DNA from: a candidate division WOR-3 bacterium
Lineage (GTDB): Bacteria > SDB-A
Assembly (NCBI GenBank): GCA_016934535.1
Contig: JAFGSQ010000024.1
Coordinates: 41,503-105,502, forward strand
Length of the DNA: 64,000 nucleotides
Direction: 5' to 3'
The notes below the pieces were generated by a model. It was not told where the DNA came from. It did not search any database and saw only the letters and a list, made by a program, of their open reading frames with translations. This document shows, one piece after another, positions 29,209-41,935 of this stretch. Positions within the stretch are counted from its first letter, which is position 1, and the number at the start of each line of letters is the position of its first letter. The translations under genes and the position numbers were made by a program.

Positions 29209-29240
29209 AAAACGGCCGCCTCAAACAGGCGGCCATTTCA
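29206..29240. terminator. Probable bidirectional intrinsic terminator
   Basis: GGCCGCCT-CAAAC-AGGCGGCC hairpin (29214-29234) with an A run before and T-rich bases after, between convergent genes. Confidence 0.75.
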
Positions 29241-29260: not shown

Positions 29261-30313
29261 TTAATCTGTCTGCCAGAGTATCAAAATGTGCTTATGTTTT
29301 CCGGGATCTTCCCAAACCACCGGTTTGCCGTCTGCCCCGAAAGAAATCATGCAATATCTCGGAGGCAGGATGAAAACAGCCACATCGCCAGGATTTGACG
29401 TTCTGTTAGCGATCCAAGAAGTGTCGCTGTCGTCATCTTTATCAATGAAAGAAGGCTTGAAACTGTTCTCAGGGTATTCGTAATATGTATATTGCAAGTA
29501 GGGCTTCTCTACGTCAGCGCTGTCTCTCTGCGTCGGTCTTCTTTGTCCTCTGCGCGTCTCGAGTTCGGGTGGATTGGGCCATACATACTTTAACAATATT
29601 GTCCCGGTTATGTCGAAATTGCCCGGAATCTCAGGTTGATTTGACAGCACATAACTGGCCACAGTGTAATTGTAAAGCCATCCGGAGAACTGGTCTTCGG
29701 CTTCGGGAGGAATTGTGTCCATGTGAACGATCTTTTTGTCCGGGGTCATGGAAAACAGAAGAGAGGGGGTTTTGTCTCCGCTTTCCCAGGCGTCGTACCT
29801 TACTCTTCCTGAGGAAGGGTCAATTGAAACGACTGTAGAATCGTCGAGAAATCTGGGAACATTTGTTTCCAAACCCGCTCTTTCCCACATTGAAATTATT
29901 TCCTGAGGTGTTTCAATCACCCACATTCCTCCATCTGCCGTGTCCCACACAACAGGCAGAGGCAGTCTCTTTTCCACGCCGGAAGATTCCGCTTTATAAA
30001 GCATGATTTCGGAGGTTCCCTGATGGAAAGGATTCTGAATTCCACCGTTTATGTATTGGCTGAAATCATCGACGGATTCAGGCAGTTCGGAAGTATATAT
30101 CCAGCTTTTTTTCTCTTCGTCCCAAAACGAAACTGATTTAGCATACATGAAATGTTCGACAGCCTTCCTAACTGTGTACAGATTCGTTCTCGACTCACGG
30201 AATTTCATTTCCGCCCGGAGAGCTTTTTGCTGGGGAAATACGAGGACTAAAACGAGCATCACACCTAAAATTACGATGGCTAAATCAAGCAGCAACTTAT
30301 AAGCTTTTCCCAT
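29261..30313 (-). CDS. Hypothetical protein with pilin/pseudopilin-like N-terminus
   Basis: ATG 30313 behind GGAGG; N-terminal hydrophobic helix continuing into an amphipathic helix (ESRTNLYTVRKAVEHF) and LPESVDD..YI..NPF; no canonical prepilin cleavage motif. Confidence 0.6.
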   Translation of the reverse strand: MGKAYKLLLDLAIVILGVMLVLVLVFPQQKALRAEMKFRESRTNLYTVRKAVEHFMYAKSVSFWDEEKKSWIYTSELPESVDDFSQYINGGIQNPFHQGTSEIMLYKAESSGVEKRLPLPVVWDTADGGMWVIETPQEIISMWERAGLETNVPRFLDDSTVVSIDPSSGRVRYDAWESGDKTPSLLFSMTPDKKIVHMDTIPPEAEDQFSGWLYNYTVASYVLSNQPEIPGNFDITGTILLKYVWPNPPELETRRGQRRPTQRDSADVEKPYLQYTYYEYPENSFKPSFIDKDDDSDTSWIANRTSNPGDVAVFILPPRYCMISFGADGKPVVWEDPGKHKHILILWQTD

Positions 30314-30446: not shown

Positions 30447-32744
30447 TCATTCCGTGAAATTTATCGGAATAACCGTCTGCGATTCGACCGGGGTGCCGTC
30501 TTCCGTAGCCGGTTGAAATCTCGCGCCCATGGCGGCGTTTCTCGCCTCGGCGTCGGCAACCGGATTTCCCGAAGAACCGACCACTTCAGCTGAGATAACC
30601 GATCCGTCGGCTCCGATGTTCACCCTGACAAAAGCTCTCGTTATACCCATGCCCTGAACTGCCGCGGGCAAAGTCGCAACAGGAAGTCTGACCGGCGTGG
30701 GATTCGTTCTCACTATCTCTCTTGCCGGCTGAGTGTCAACCGGCGCCGTTACAGAAACCGTTGTATCCTCGACGTTTGTTTCAATAAGTGCTCCTGCGAC
30801 TGTCACGGTTGAAACCGTGTCTATAATTTCGGCGGTTTCCGTGGTGTCTTCCGGTTCGGGTGTTGTCGCCGTGTCAACGACGGCCTCTTCTCCAGCAGCT
30901 AAAGCTTCTTCCAGCGCTTCTCCGGCGGCCTCGAGTTCCAGAATCCCCGAGTCAATAACCGACAGATTTCCGGACGAACCCAACGAAGCCAAGGCTGAAG
31001 AGTCGGCAAGTGTAAGGGCTGTTGTAGAAGAAACGCCTCCGGAGTAATACATTTCCTGAATAGACAGCGCAGCAATTTTATCGCCGCTTTCAATACCTTT
31101 CAGGTTATTTTCCGCTACGTTCAATTCATAAGGCGCAAAAAGAAACGTGTAGGGCTGTTCGTCCAGTAATATTTTCTGAAATTTATCCCATGCTTTTTTC
31201 GCCTGTCTTCTGTCCAGTATCACTGTCGCTTCGCTCAGAAGAGAATCAACTTCCGGGGAAGAGAAAGAAGAGAAGTTGATAGACCCTCCGCTGCCAAAAG
31301 CTTCTTTGGGGTGTATGACTCCTTCGTCTACAAAAGCATAGTCGAGGATATATCCGCTATATCCGCCGAACCGCAGTTGCGATCTCAGATAATTCTGTGT
31401 GTAGCTGAGGTTTATGCCCGTTGTGACGTAAACCGAACAGACAAGTCCGACACTGCCGAGATCTTCGGCCACCCTTTCGAGAATTGTCTTTCCGGATTGG
31501 TCAAAAGCCATGAGTCTTATGACAAATATTTCTCCGCTGTATTTTCTGGCAAAAACAGAATCTGAAGGAACAATCCGGGTCTCGAATCTTCCAGGTCTCA
31601 CTTCGAATTCCTTTGCGGCGTAAGAAGTATATATCCATTGCCTCTCTTTAAGTCCTAGTGAATCAAGTATCGTGTTTGCCAACGCTTCGTCATAAGGCAC
31701 CGGATCCAAACTGGAATTAAGAGCCCAAAATTTTGTAGAAAGAGGAGTCGCCGGAACTCTGCCCTGCCCTCCCAGAAACTCGTCAATTATTTTTTCCCTG
31801 TCTATGGCGGCCGTTAAGGCATACCTGAAGCGGGGCAGATTGAAAGGTTCGGCGCTGGTCGACCATCCTATGGCATAATACCTTTTTCCCGTCTGGTCAA
31901 TTTGCAGAGACACTCCTTCGTAAGCGTTCAGCCTCGAAGCGTATGAAGGATAGACGTTCATGGCAAGGTTGATGTCGCCTCTTTCGAACGCTCTGACCAT
32001 TTCTCCCGAGGTCCTGAAAAAAAGGAAATCGATGGAATCGAAAGCAGGTCTTCCTCTGTAATAATCTTCGTAATACGCCAGGACTACACCTGAGCCGGCA
32101 GTTCTCTCTATCAACAGGAAAGGTCCGTTTGTCACAGTCGCATCAGGGTTCAACCCGAATTCTGTATTTTGAAAATCAGCCCAGGTCTTCACTCCTGAAA
32201 ACAGGTGTGAAGGAAGCGGATAAATATCGCTGTCTATGAGCTCGTTGGCGTAGGGCTGTTTGAAATTAACTTTTACGACATATTTGCCGAGGACTTCAAC
32301 GGACGAGATGTTTTCGAGAAATACCCTGTAGGGAGTTTCAATGTCTTTGTTGTCTTTAATAAAATCGTAGGTAAACTTGATGTCCAGGGCGGTGACTTCC
32401 TCTCCGTCCGACCATTTGATCCCTTTTCTTATGTAATAAACTATCGCGCCCAGGTCTTCAGAAAACTCCCATCTTTCGGCGAGAGCCGGTATGAGCTTTC
32501 CGTCAGGATTTCTCGTAATTAAAGGAAGGTAAAGCTGTTCGGACACCGGATTTCTGCCCGTGAACATAGGATGCAGGGGCTGATTTGGCCTCGGTATGTC
32601 ACTGCCGGTTAGTCCTATTTTCAATGTGCCGCCTTTGTCGCCCGTGAGGTTTTTCACGGGACTTTTTGTGCATCCAGCCGTCACAGTCACGGCTAACAAA
32701 ACAGCGCATAAAACCGGGAAACAAACTAATCGGAAGTTTTTCAT
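30447..32744 (-). CDS. Family-5 (OppA/DppA-like) solute-binding lipoprotein fused to a TonB C-terminal domain
   Basis: Lipobox TAGC; PALAERWEFS, IRKGIKWSDG, VTNGPF, AIDREKI and FQKILLDEQPY SBP5 motifs; acidic Thr/Ala linker; TonB_C motif VRVNIGADGSV..VVGSSG..ADAEA..A..ARFQPA..DG.PV. Confidence 0.85.
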   Translation of the reverse strand: MKNFRLVCFPVLCAVLLAVTVTAGCTKSPVKNLTGDKGGTLKIGLTGSDIPRPNQPLHPMFTGRNPVSEQLYLPLITRNPDGKLIPALAERWEFSEDLGAIVYYIRKGIKWSDGEEVTALDIKFTYDFIKDNKDIETPYRVFLENISSVEVLGKYVVKVNFKQPYANELIDSDIYPLPSHLFSGVKTWADFQNTEFGLNPDATVTNGPFLLIERTAGSGVVLAYYEDYYRGRPAFDSIDFLFFRTSGEMVRAFERGDINLAMNVYPSYASRLNAYEGVSLQIDQTGKRYYAIGWSTSAEPFNLPRFRYALTAAIDREKIIDEFLGGQGRVPATPLSTKFWALNSSLDPVPYDEALANTILDSLGLKERQWIYTSYAAKEFEVRPGRFETRIVPSDSVFARKYSGEIFVIRLMAFDQSGKTILERVAEDLGSVGLVCSVYVTTGINLSYTQNYLRSQLRFGGYSGYILDYAFVDEGVIHPKEAFGSGGSINFSSFSSPEVDSLLSEATVILDRRQAKKAWDKFQKILLDEQPYTFLFAPYELNVAENNLKGIESGDKIAALSIQEMYYSGGVSSTTALTLADSSALASLGSSGNLSVIDSGILELEAAGEALEEALAAGEEAVVDTATTPEPEDTTETAEIIDTVSTVTVAGALIETNVEDTTVSVTAPVDTQPAREIVRTNPTPVRLPVATLPAAVQGMGITRAFVRVNIGADGSVISAEVVGSSGNPVADAEARNAAMGARFQPATEDGTPVESQTVIPINFTE

Positions 32745-32762
32745 GCCTCCCCCTTGAAAGCG

Positions 32763-32975
32763 TTATGATTTTTTTTGTTTAGAACTATATTTTTTCATAA
32801 ATCTTTCAACTCTTCCTGCGGTATCAACAAACTTCTGTTTGCCTGTGAAATACGGATGACACGCCGAACAAATTTCAACGCCGAAAGAAGGTCTGGTTGA
32901 GAAAGTCTCTATTATGTTTCCGCATGCACATGTTATCGTACATTTCTGATATTTCGGATGAATCCCTTTTTTCAT
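32763..32975 (-). CDS. rpmE: 50S ribosomal protein L31 (zinc-binding type)
   Basis: [23 protein letters not shown] and DTAGRVERF. Confidence 0.97.
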
Positions 32976-39976: not shown

Positions 39977-41935
39977 ATGAAGAGCAAATCAGTATTGTTA
40001 TTGTTGGTTGCGGCGGCTTTTCTGATTCCGCTCTCGACGCTCAGCGGAAGAGTGAGCCTCGACGGATCAGGCGGTTGGTTCAGAATCCCGTCAGCTTACA
40101 ACCTCGGCAAAGGAACTTTCACGATTGGCTCAAGGTTAATGCTCAATTATTACGCGTTCGAGGATTCTTTTCCGACTACCCTGATTTACTACGACACGAC
40201 TTGGGTGGGACCGGTTTTCACTGTCGACACGACGACCAGAGACACGGTGGTCAGTACTGGAGACGCTCTTATGTGTATTACAGTTCCATTCGGAATCTCT
40301 TACGCGATTACAGATTTCGACGAATTCGGGATTTCGGGCGTTTTTTATTATGACCGTTTCATCGCCCAGCACATACACATAAGACCTGACAATCCAGGAA
40401 TAATCGAAAACGACTCACTCGGCACTTTCCAATATTTCGGAAGGAACAGTATTGTCAGCTCCGCTATTGGCGATATTTCTGTGTTCTACAAAAGAACCAT
40501 TCCAGTCAACGAAAAATTTACAATGGGCGGATTAATTCAGATAATATTCCCTACCGGTCCTGAGAGAGAGGATTCTTTCGTCAGAAGGACGACCCCGGAC
40601 AGTCTCAGGGTCAGCGAGGACGACATAACATGGAACGGAGGCCTGTTCAGGACTTTCAGACAGGGATTCGGCGGCGGAGTCAGCCTGATAGGCTCTTTCA
40701 AACCTATCCCTGAATCTCCGTTCTCTCTCGGAGGAATAGTCGGTTACAATTACTTGGGCTACAATGAATATCAGACATTGCTCGTCGGCATTGGCGCTTC
40801 TTTCAAAGGAAAGTATTTCGAGCCTTTCGTAGAAGCGACAGGAACTTTCGTACTTTCTCCCGACAGCATTGCAAGCCCTCTGAGACTGACTCCCGGACTC
40901 CGCTTCACATCTCTGCCGGGGCTTTATCTTGACATAGCTTACGATTTCAGGCTGACTTCGAACGACAAGTACAACGTCGAAAGTTACGCATTCAGCCCGG
41001 ACTGGCTCGCTTCAGTTGGATTCGGCTGGTCATACGATTTCATCCCGGACCGCCCGAAACTCGCCTGGATTGCCGGAACAGTGATGGACTCCAAAACAAT
41101 GACAGGCATATACGGAGCGAGCGTCGCGTTTGAAGACACAACGGCCGACGGATTTCTCTTCCCCACGCTGGCCACGGACGATTACGGTGCATGGTTCGTA
41201 GCCGACATACCTGCTCCCAGGTATATCGAGGTAACGGCAACTGCTCCCGGTTATTCATCAGTAAGTCCCAGACCCGTTTACGTTTCTCCGGGCGATTCTG
41301 TGACCGGCCTCGATTTCGTTCTCGAGCAGAATCTCGGCATTATAAAGGGCGTAGTCTATGAGATCAAAACCGACGCTTCAACGGCGCCCATAGCCGCCAA
41401 CATTAACATTACGGGAGACACGACCCTGTCGATTTCGACTGACGAAAACGGCAGATTTGAAATCACTCTTCTTCCCGGTACATTCAATTTTGAAGCTTAC
41501 GTAGCCGGATATATTCCGTCGAAAAAGGAATTCAGTCTCGAAAGCAAACAGGTTTTGGTCGCGGAGTTCAATCTTCTCAAAGAGAAAGCCGAACTGGTGT
41601 TCCACAACATAAACTTCGAAGTCAACAAAGCTGAACTTCTGCCGGAATCCTATCCCATCCTCGACCAGCTCGCGAGACTTCTCAAAGAAAATCCCGACGT
41701 AAAGATAGAAATACAGGGACACACTGACAGCGACGGAAGCAACGCTCACAACCAGCAGCTTTCCGAAGCGAGAGCCGGTTCTGTTCGGAACTACCTGATC
41801 AACTCTCACGGAATCTCCCCTGAAAAACTCATCGCCATAGGTTACGGCGAGTCGAGGCTCATGATTTCACCCGAGAGATCGAGAGAAGACAAGAGAATGA
41901 ACAGAAGAGTGGAATTCCACGTCATAGATAACTAA
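39977..41935 (+). CDS. OmpA-family protein: N-terminal barrel, two carboxypeptidase-regulatory-like Ig domains, peptidoglycan-binding domain
   Basis: Signal peptide; GSGGWFRIPSAYNLGKG; TDDYGAW and TDENGRF CarboxypepD_reg-like motifs; INFE, IQGHTDSDG, LSEARA, GYGE and NRRVEF. Confidence 0.88.
   Translation: MKSKSVLLLLVAAAFLIPLSTLSGRVSLDGSGGWFRIPSAYNLGKGTFTIGSRLMLNYYAFEDSFPTTLIYYDTTWVGPVFTVDTTTRDTVVSTGDALMCITVPFGISYAITDFDEFGISGVFYYDRFIAQHIHIRPDNPGIIENDSLGTFQYFGRNSIVSSAIGDISVFYKRTIPVNEKFTMGGLIQIIFPTGPEREDSFVRRTTPDSLRVSEDDITWNGGLFRTFRQGFGGGVSLIGSFKPIPESPFSLGGIVGYNYLGYNEYQTLLVGIGASFKGKYFEPFVEATGTFVLSPDSIASPLRLTPGLRFTSLPGLYLDIAYDFRLTSNDKYNVESYAFSPDWLASVGFGWSYDFIPDRPKLAWIAGTVMDSKTMTGIYGASVAFEDTTADGFLFPTLATDDYGAWFVADIPAPRYIEVTATAPGYSSVSPRPVYVSPGDSVTGLDFVLEQNLGIIKGVVYEIKTDASTAPIAANINITGDTTLSISTDENGRFEITLLPGTFNFEAYVAGYIPSKKEFSLESKQVLVAEFNLLKEKAELVFHNINFEVNKAELLPESYPILDQLARLLKENPDVKIEIQGHTDSDGSNAHNQQLSEARAGSVRNYLINSHGISPEKLIAIGYGESRLMISPERSREDKRMNRRVEFHVIDN

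Follow-up and report, generated by a model that had tools for sequence, protein, structure and literature searches.

We analyzed a 64,000-nucleotide stretch of contig JAFGSQ010000024.1 from a candidate division WOR-3 bacterium (the window, meaning this whole stretch), in which one gene at 30447..32744 of the reverse strand encodes a lipoprotein of 765 residues that joins a family-5 solute-binding protein (SBP) to a TonB C-terminal domain (TonB_C). This protein, referred to below as the fusion, is best described as an uncharacterised combination of two known modules that is common in its phyla. By its fold it belongs to both families, whereas it lacks the motor anchor that marks a TonB and the operon context that marks a classical SBP. 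The explanation that we favor, tentatively and with a probability of about 0.4, is that of a motor-less, lipid-anchored binding protein which would dock by its TonB_C on outer-membrane transporters bearing a TonB box; such docking would, we infer, proceed without proton-motive-force coupling. The gene consists of the following parts.

30447..32744 (-), whole fusion gene, 765-residue lipoprotein (family-5 SBP body, linker and TonB_C), stop codon at 30447-30449; Pfam and NCBIfam
32746..32753 (-), Shine-Dalgarno sequence GGGGGAGG; read directly from the sequence
32670..32744 (-), putative signal peptide and lipobox T-A-G-C, residues 1-25; from the sequence pattern only
31041..32639 (-), solute-binding domain of family 5 (cluster C), residues ~36-568; Pfam, PDB sequence search, AlphaFold2 (AF2) and Foldseek
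31539..31643 (-), predicted beta-hairpin insertion in the SBP, residues 368-402; AF2 strands E368-383 and E386-402, comparison with the relative P0242
30720..31040 (-), disordered acidic linker, residues 569-675; predicted local distance difference test (pLDDT), composition and ratio of nonsynonymous to synonymous substitution rates (omega)
30885..30947 (-), conserved linker motif GILELEAAGEALEEALAAGEE, residues 600-620; invariant residues, weak helix and motif census
30450..30719 (-), TonB C-terminal domain, conserved N-terminal extension included, residues 676-765; Pfam, NCBIfam, AF2, Foldseek and omega

Domain architecture of the fusion

The open reading frame (ORF) at 30447-32744 (-) runs through 765 codons without an internal stop. 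It is preceded by the strong Shine-Dalgarno sequence GGGGGAGG, which lies 9 nt past the stop codon of rpmE and whose last base stands 1 nt before the ATG at 32744. The N-terminus of the encoded protein, MKNFRLVCFPVLCAVLLAVTVTAGC, has the features of a lipoprotein signal, contains no histidine and shows a hydrophobic segment followed by the lipobox T-A-G-C at residues 22-25, so that Cys25 is the predicted lipidated residue. The lipobox cysteine is present in 39 of 39 full-length members of the family described below.

The body of the protein matched SBP_bac_5 (PF00496) with an E-value of 7.4e-57 and 193.6 bits (gathering cutoff 32.4) over positions 1-297 of the 368 in the profile. AF2 predicted a complete bilobate binding-protein fold for this body with pLDDT values of 70-95, and a Foldseek search with the model retrieved AppA (1xoc) at 2e-37, E-values ranging from 1e-30 to 1e-37 across AppA, NikZ, NikA and CtaP and TM-scores normalised to these targets from 0.78 to 0.89. 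Similarly, a PDB sequence search with the fusion found AppA at 2e-35, and the murein-peptide binder MppA was also among its PDB relatives. The best NCBIfam models for the SBP were Opp4A, NikA and CntA, all with scores far under the equivalog cutoffs. The nearest counterparts of the fold are binders of oligopeptides (AppA, Opp4A) and of nickel or metallophores (NikA, NikZ). Peptides are our best guess for the cargo, because AppA and Opp4A were the best matches in PDB and NCBIfam and because an exported M19 dipeptidase is encoded beside the fusion in some loci (see below); a metal chelate is the second possibility.

When compared to the family-5 (cluster C) SBPs of ATP-binding cassette (ABC) transporters (B. 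subtilis AppA 1xoc, OppA/DppA, NikA/NikZ and CtaP), the fusion shares the full bilobate fold and, as in many SBPs, a lipoprotein signal. In contrast, the fusion alone possesses a C-terminal linker and a TonB_C, and it was not adjacent to OppBCDF-type genes in any of 20 loci. The subfamily to which the window protein belongs (window subfamily) differs further from these SBPs by a predicted long, two-stranded beta-hairpin insertion of ~35 residues (368-402), which is missing from the relatives with Pro-rich linkers, and by a divergent W..D..DP segment (GYILDYAFVDEGVIHP). Residue D468 was considered as the peptide-amine-binding aspartate of OppA/DppA and was dropped on the basis of a 39-sequence alignment that puts it outside the W..D..DP column. 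Among the distant matches, family-5 SBP domains also occurred in other unusual fusions, namely with PG_binding_1 (PF01471) in P0176, with a class-3 adenylate cyclase and an AAA_16 domain in P0227, and with a methyl-accepting chemotaxis protein (MCP) signalling domain in P0230.

The C-terminus matched TonB_C (PF03544) at 3e-11 and 44 bits (cutoff 24.6) as well as the NCBIfam model tonB_Cterm TIGR01352 at 43.7 bits (cutoff 27.1). In the AF2 models it is folded as a beta-beta-alpha-beta module, with pLDDT values of 71-86 in the full-length model and of 86-94 in a separate model of residues 590-765. The top 15 Foldseek matches of this module were all C-terminal domains (CTDs) of TonB, including those of the TbpA, FoxA, BtuB and FhuA complexes, and TolA ranked lower. 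The terminal strand TVIPINF was invariant in the alignment. An earlier reading made from the window alone (the sequence-only reading) had proposed one frame with the lipobox TAGC, a full OppA/DppA-like domain, a linker and a TonB_C, 18 nt downstream of rpmE. Pfam, NCBIfam, AF2 and Foldseek bear this order of parts out, the C-terminus does model as TonB_C, and the gap from the rpmE stop to the ATG is 18 nt.

The linker was described in the same reading as an acidic Thr/Ala/Pro segment of ~110 residues, of which the position and the acidity stand and the richness in proline does not. With 20 acidic (D+E) and one basic (K+R) residue, the linker of the window protein has a net charge of -19, and it is rich in Thr, Ser, Ala and Val, with four prolines in ~109 residues. 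The Pro-rich domain II typical of TonB is therefore missing from the window fusion, whereas relatives with Pro-rich linkers (21-29 prolines) have it. In the AF2 model, residues 569-679 have a pLDDT of ~25 and are predicted to be unstructured apart from one weak helix at 602-617. No tandem repeat was found in the linker DNA.

Integrity of the gene and selection

An artefact, be it a chimeric assembly, a gene pair joined by a frameshift or a decaying pseudogene, was considered as a further explanation, and nothing was found in its favor; the Logan contig over the gene measures just 2.8 kb in the source run. An unrelated wastewater study yielded a 24-kb contig that was ~93% identical and collinear over the whole gene. 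The sole indel in its ORF was a deletion of 3 nt within the linker, in frame, with which the protein P0002 (764 residues) agrees. Also, the gene for P0003, an orthologue with 77% identity, was encountered on at least 24 independent contigs. Independent sequences thus do span the linker, whereas the sequence-only reading had named the lack of reads across it as the mark of a chimera. Furthermore, at least 39 full-length clusters show the identical order of parts. Between two orthologues at a dS of ~0.45 (unsaturated), the SBP, the linker and TonB_C had omega values of 0.073, 0.141 and 0.036, respectively, each far less than 1, and internal stops were absent. Collinear independent contigs, together with purifying selection on all three parts, show that the gene is not a chimeric assembly, and the artefact explanation is in practice refuted.

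Of the three parts of the fusion, TonB_C is under the tightest constraint. Amino acid identity amounted to 71-100% in TonB_C compared to 52-97% in the SBP, and in the TonB_C region (30450-30719) 16 nucleotide differences were listed against the X2 strain, yet amino acid identity to P0002 was 100%. Among the contigs of the source study's metatranscriptome none covered the fusion gene, a result that is uninformative on expression.

Distribution and phylogeny of the fusion family

Initial homology searches returned six clusters, and a search of 50% representatives returned one, which under-sampled the family; the initial count gave the fusion in 3 species genomes out of ~185,000. A scan of metagenomes then yielded two proteins, encoded at loci L038 and L039, that aligned with the fusion over its full length at 28-29% identity. 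One of this pair, P0242, matched SBP_bac_5 at 8e-94 and 315 bits with full profile coverage and TonB_C at 1.4e-20, and it possesses a Pro/Ala-rich, TonB-like rod and a canonical YP motif. A search seeded with the L038 and L039 proteins led to at least 33 further clusters carrying both Pfam domains. The family therefore comprises at least 39 full-length clusters from sources named WOR-3, TA06 and Candidatus Edwardsbacteria, whose members databases list either as a 'peptide/nickel SBP' or as a 'TonB family protein'. Within these lineages the architecture is no rarity. The sequence-only reading knew of no characterisation of it, and in the literature that we searched (including that on WOR-3 TonB, on PF03544 combined with PF00496, and a force-transducer survey in MBE 2025) no paper on an SBP-TonB_C fusion was found.

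In a maximum-likelihood tree the 39 full-length fusions formed one clade with a support of 100/99, and the nearest unfused family-5 proteins (annotated 'peptide-binding protein', ~34% identical) fell outside it. The fusion would therefore, most simply, have arisen once and anciently. Within the clade, the window subfamily grouped with P0274, P0275 and P0276, with the caveat of a long branch; P0274 and P0275, at 31% identity, were its closest outside relatives by BLAST. Halieaceae matches with long spans were considered as further fusions and rejected, as they represent tandem OppA genes followed by a permease. Two metagenome-assembled genomes with close orthologues (loci L005 and L007) bear the label Desulfuromonadaceae or 'Desulfuromonas sp. 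SDB'. Genes are ordered in them as in the WOR-3 loci, and these bins are probably mislabelled in their taxonomy.

A TonB domain without a motor anchor

TonB and TolA are coupled to their motors by a transmembrane (TM) helix with an SHLS motif, and their C-terminal domains bind partners by beta-strand addition (PMC12204202). Neither an N-terminal TM helix nor the SHLS motif is present in the N-terminus of the fusion, which therefore has no known way to engage ExbBD. In other respects the fusion resembles the energy transducer of the E. coli TonB type: its TonB_C scores above the curated cutoffs and superposes on receptor-bound TonB CTDs (BtuB, FhuA, FoxA and TbpA), and in both proteins a long periplasmic spacer precedes the CTD. 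In the Pro-rich clade the resemblance extends to a Pro/Ala spacer rod like that of TonB and to a retained YP motif. In contrast to E. coli TonB, the anchor of the fusion is a predicted lipid together with a binding domain of ~530 residues; in the window fusion, moreover, the spacer is acidic with few prolines, YP is replaced by LP, and no exbBD genes are nearby.

TonB variants with extra N-terminal modules are described as functionally uncharacterised (PMC10350073). In BlaR1/M56-TonB_C, TPR-TonB_C (tetratricopeptide repeat) and multi-TonB_C proteins, and in TonB1, 7, 8, 10 and 11 of B. thetaiotaomicron, TonB_C is likewise a C-terminal module on a body other than that of TonB. However, a solute-binding domain occurs in none of these proteins, and most have membrane-spanning N-termini. 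The nearest relatives of the fusion TonB_C were dominated by proteins with 3-7 tandem TonB_C domains (P0024, of 1080 residues, P0025 and many more), some of them with additional TPR or M56 domains.

The closest single-domain relative, with 46% identity, was P0076, a lipoprotein of 133 residues (L035 10001-10402, WOR-3 genome CP070680.1) that consists of a lipobox (LVAAGC), a short Pro-rich linker and a TonB_C. It is annotated as 'energy transducer TonB' yet has no TM helix, and no ExbBD was seen near its gene in the locus context. P0076 and the fusion are both lipobox-anchored and free of a TM helix, whereas P0076 has no binding domain and its linker is short and Pro-rich. From the anatomy of P0076 it follows that lipid-anchored, motor-less TonB_C proteins exist also without a binding domain.

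The linker and its conserved motif

Linker length was confined to 75-141 residues in all 39 family members, and linker chemistry varied: it is Pro/Ala-rich in most, acidic with a net charge of -19 to -42 in the window subfamily, and K/E-rich in P0275. A kept length combined with a free composition is as expected for a spacer. Within these linkers a short motif is conserved. In the window subfamily it reads (I/L)xEL..G..LEEA at residues 600-620 (GILELEAAGEALEEA in the window protein), with the invariant residues E603, L604, G608, L611, E612, A614, G618 and E620, and both AF2 models predict it, with low confidence, to resemble a helix. Most members have it as NPQD(I/L)L(V/A)A between prolines, usually with T/A-P following, and P0274 and P0275 have it as NPE(V/E)LLEKK. 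A regular expression found the motif in 29 of the 39 linkers compared to ~1 in shuffled linkers, and nine of the ten linkers that were missed visibly contain NPQD(I/L/V)LAA.

The TonB D-box (QPISVTMVTPAD) is bound by ExbD and is a Pro-flanked segment rich in beta-branched and hydrophobic residues (PMC10907165). Judged by its letters, the linker motif resembles the TonB box of a receptor encoded beside two of the fusions (PEIVVTA) and, loosely, the D-box, in being Pro-flanked and strand-prone. The fusion could accordingly be an energised alternative TonB, in which ExbD captures the motif (of the type NPQDILVAE-TP) in the manner of a D-box and the SBP protein pulls on receptors. The conservation of so short a motif in otherwise free linkers and its Pro-flanked, beta-branched/hydrophobic-rich character would suit this idea. 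However, the D-box lies beside the membrane anchor, whereas the motif of the fusion is found 60-85 residues into the linker, after a globular domain of ~530 residues, and a lipid anchor is unable to pass torque or force from ExbB. In addition, the motif of the window subfamily is predicted to be helical instead of forming a strand, and the motif is at least as similar to a TonB box as to a D-box. We regard an energised fusion as very improbable.

Docking on outer-membrane transporters as the favored explanation

The favored docking explanation is in line with four observations: the fusion has neither an N-terminal TM helix nor SHLS, TonB_C is its most constrained part, the length of the tether is kept, and TonB-dependent transporters (TBDTs) with a canonical TonB box are encoded in related lineages (L117 and L120, see below). 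Lipidation at Cys25 would hold the binding domain at the membrane surface, and the spacer would give TonB_C access to outer-membrane proteins from the periplasmic side. On that side, TonB_C would join an exposed strand by beta-strand addition, the likeliest such strand being the TonB box of a ligand-loaded TBDT. Docking would then place the binding domain under the channel, or tie a binder anchored in the inner membrane to the import site in the outer membrane. Cargo leaving the transporter would be caught at once and handed on, either to a permease encoded elsewhere or to periplasmic enzymes such as, in the Pro-rich clade, the exported M19 dipeptidase.

PMC3813593 cites reports of non-covalent contacts of TonB with FhuD and with BtuF (Carter 2006 and James 2009). 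The idea common to these E. coli contacts and the docking explanation is that the C-terminal region of TonB meets a periplasmic binder under a TonB-dependent transporter. However, the E. coli contacts are transient and involve separate proteins, cluster-A binders and a motor-coupled TonB, whereas the fusion is one polypeptide with a family-5 binder and without a motor link. For the import of oligopeptides by a TBDT, RagAB provides a precedent (bioRxiv 10.1101/755678).

How cargo released from a TBDT is handed over to a periplasmic binding protein is poorly understood, and the TonB-FhuD and TonB-BtuF contacts have been hard to interpret. A monophyletic and apparently ancient fusion under strong selection is a 'Rosetta-stone' hint that binding and TonB docking belong together, and as a compact, soluble construct it offers a handle on this open step of outer-membrane import. 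TonB_C may also dock on its own as a module of lipid-anchored proteins, so that annotations as 'TonB family protein' could have a wider meaning. For three nearly unstudied candidate phyla (WOR-3, TA06 and Edwardsbacteria) the fusion represents a defined envelope feature. If the docking explanation is true, nutrient capture would be hard-wired to outer-membrane import channels.

A more elaborate relay, covalent and self-gated, can be drawn from the linker motif, which in that case would be an internal pseudo-TonB-box latch that either occupies the protein's own TonB_C or recruits the real TonB. Here the motif NPQD(I/L)L(V/A)A of most members, and its counterpart GILELEAA in the window protein, are likened to the PEIVVTA box of a receptor of the lineage; when a loaded transporter exposes its TonB box, TonB_C would swap partners and set the binding domain at the channel exit. 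Such a latch strikes us as improbable and speculative. If it were true, it would amount to a trans-envelope relay that works without a motor and is confined to WOR-3, TA06 and Edwardsbacteria, and to a natural covalent form of the debated model in which TonB scaffolds a binder under the transporter.

Genomic context and the weighing of alternatives

The following neighboring features bear on the docking explanation and its alternatives.

32763..32975 (-), rpmE (ribosomal protein L31), 18 nt upstream of the fusion; Pfam 7e-32
29261..30313 (-), 350-residue membrane protein downstream of the fusion; Shine-Dalgarno GGAGGG before the ATG at 30313
29209..29239 (-), strong intrinsic terminator with a 13-bp stem, which ends the string of rpmE, fusion and 350-residue protein genes
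L117 1366-3575 (-) and L120 3-1489 (-), BtuB-like TonB-dependent receptor beside the fusion; TonB box PEIVVTA
L039 8783-9805 (-), M19 dipeptidase; N-terminal signal sequence

Genes for a permease, an ATPase, ExbBD or a TBDT do not adjoin the fusion, as the sequence-only reading had stated, and none turned up among the window ORFs that were scanned. No BPD_transp_1 or Opp-type gene is close by, and the sole ABC genes of the window are a sugar-type set at a distance of 20 kb. The order rho, rpmE, fusion and gene for a membrane protein of ~350 residues is kept in the window subfamily down to 49% identity. No terminator was found between rpmE, the fusion and the 350-residue protein gene, and the fusion is probably co-transcribed with rpmE.

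Several points weigh against docking on TBDTs. Co-transcription with rpmE suggests constitutive housekeeping expression that is not nutrient-regulated. TBDT, ExbBD and TonB genes were not found near the fusion in the 64-kb window or in the flanks of the window-subfamily loci, and tblastn gave no match to an OppB-like permease in 342 kb of 20 fusion loci, a partner gene elsewhere in the genome being possible. The window subfamily itself stands on a long branch, and in its TonB_C the canonical tyrosine of the YP motif is lost (LP or VP). A motor-less TonB_C would also compete with the real TonB for the TonB box, and the docking model does not explain how this is avoided.

The receptors found beside the fusion add to these points. 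In the loci of P0275 and P0274, two proteins that are 65% identical to each other, the fusion gene is divergent to that of a BtuB-like TBDT of 653 residues with the TonB box PEIVVTA. In both loci (L117 and L120) a cobalamin riboswitch, RF00174, was detected by Rfam on the TBDT's own strand with 92 and 90 bits, respectively, and the fusion gene has a promoter-like site of its own. A 142-residue ORF called over the L120 riboswitch is probably spurious. Family-5 SBPs are not known to bind B12. As the two loci share other synteny too, the adjacency counts as a single evolutionary event and may be due to chance or plain synteny. With the receptor under its own cobalamin riboswitch, the adjacency was abandoned as a strong sign of partnership; it proves that TBDTs with canonical TonB boxes exist in these lineages and does not prove that they are partners of the fusion.

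Part of this evidence would be accommodated if TonB_C were a generic beta-augmentation module, or an anchor to peptidoglycan or the outer membrane, for a family-5 peptide binder with no specific link to a TBDT; such a binder would chaperone unfolded envelope proteins or bind cell-wall or degradation peptides. TonB_C is promiscuous, its closest counterparts here residing in BlaR1/M56, TPR and multi-TonB_C proteins, and it occurs in WOR-3 as the stand-alone lipoprotein P0076. A family-5 SBP fused to a peptidoglycan-binding domain exists in P0176 (PF01471), and the murein-peptide binder MppA is a PDB relative. The housekeeping-like place of the gene after rho and rpmE, beside lipopolysaccharide and envelope genes, also suits an envelope anchor or chaperone and counts, with the points above, against docking; so does the lack of a nearby ABC permease in 20 loci suit it. 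On the other side, the top structural matches of the C-terminus are TonB CTDs caught on receptor TonB boxes, with TolA lower, and TVIPINF, the terminal edge strand, is constrained very strongly, which points to a specific partner for it. Also, no peptidoglycan-binding motif was identified in the fusion. All told, we consider a generic anchor or chaperone the main rival to docking, possible if rather unlikely.

The fusion might instead be a sensor or regulator that reports to a component of the envelope without carrying cargo, the SBP sensing a periplasmic ligand or TonB_C sensing whether a receptor is occupied, of which the latter is the alternative named in the sequence-only reading. In the window subfamily this component could be the 350-residue protein, by its sequence a bitopic membrane protein with an N-terminal hydrophobic helix, for which Pfam and NCBIfam gave no match. 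Its gene follows that of the fusion in nine of nine fetched loci of the window subfamily (window included), with no terminator between them, and it is a possible partner. Family-5 SBP domains have been reused in signalling, as in the cyclase (P0227) and MCP (P0230) fusions, and the gene for P0276 adjoins a response regulator and histidine kinase pair, contexts differing again at other loci. However, the 350-residue protein gene is absent from the loci of other clades, so that it does not encode a family-wide partner, and it may have a promoter of its own. Moreover, Pfam detected no signalling domain in the fusion or in the 350-residue neighbor. A purely sensory role therefore appears improbable to us, and docking on outer-membrane transporters is retained as the favored explanation.

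Other observations on the neighborhood

After its hydrophobic helix, the 350-residue protein contains a segment (…FPQQKALRAEMKFRESRTNLYTVRKAVEHF…) that by eye looks similar to the N-terminus of pilins or pseudopilins, without the usual G-F/E5 cleavage motif.

In five loci of the Pro-rich (TA06-type) clade (L038, at its edge, L039, L119, L124 and L125) the divergent neighbor of the fusion gene encodes a dipeptidase of the M19 family whose N-terminal signal sequence predicts export. Just past the dipeptidase gene, a MlaE/MlaF-type pair is present in L124 and L125, and the genes scanned beyond it in L039 encode an ABC ATPase and a PrsW-family protease.

At 39977-41935 (+) the window encodes a protein of 652 residues that contains two CarboxypepD_reg-like domains and, at its C-terminus, an OmpA domain. 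This gene is kept in the same neighborhood in L001 and L003, and its product may be a tether between the outer membrane and peptidoglycan.

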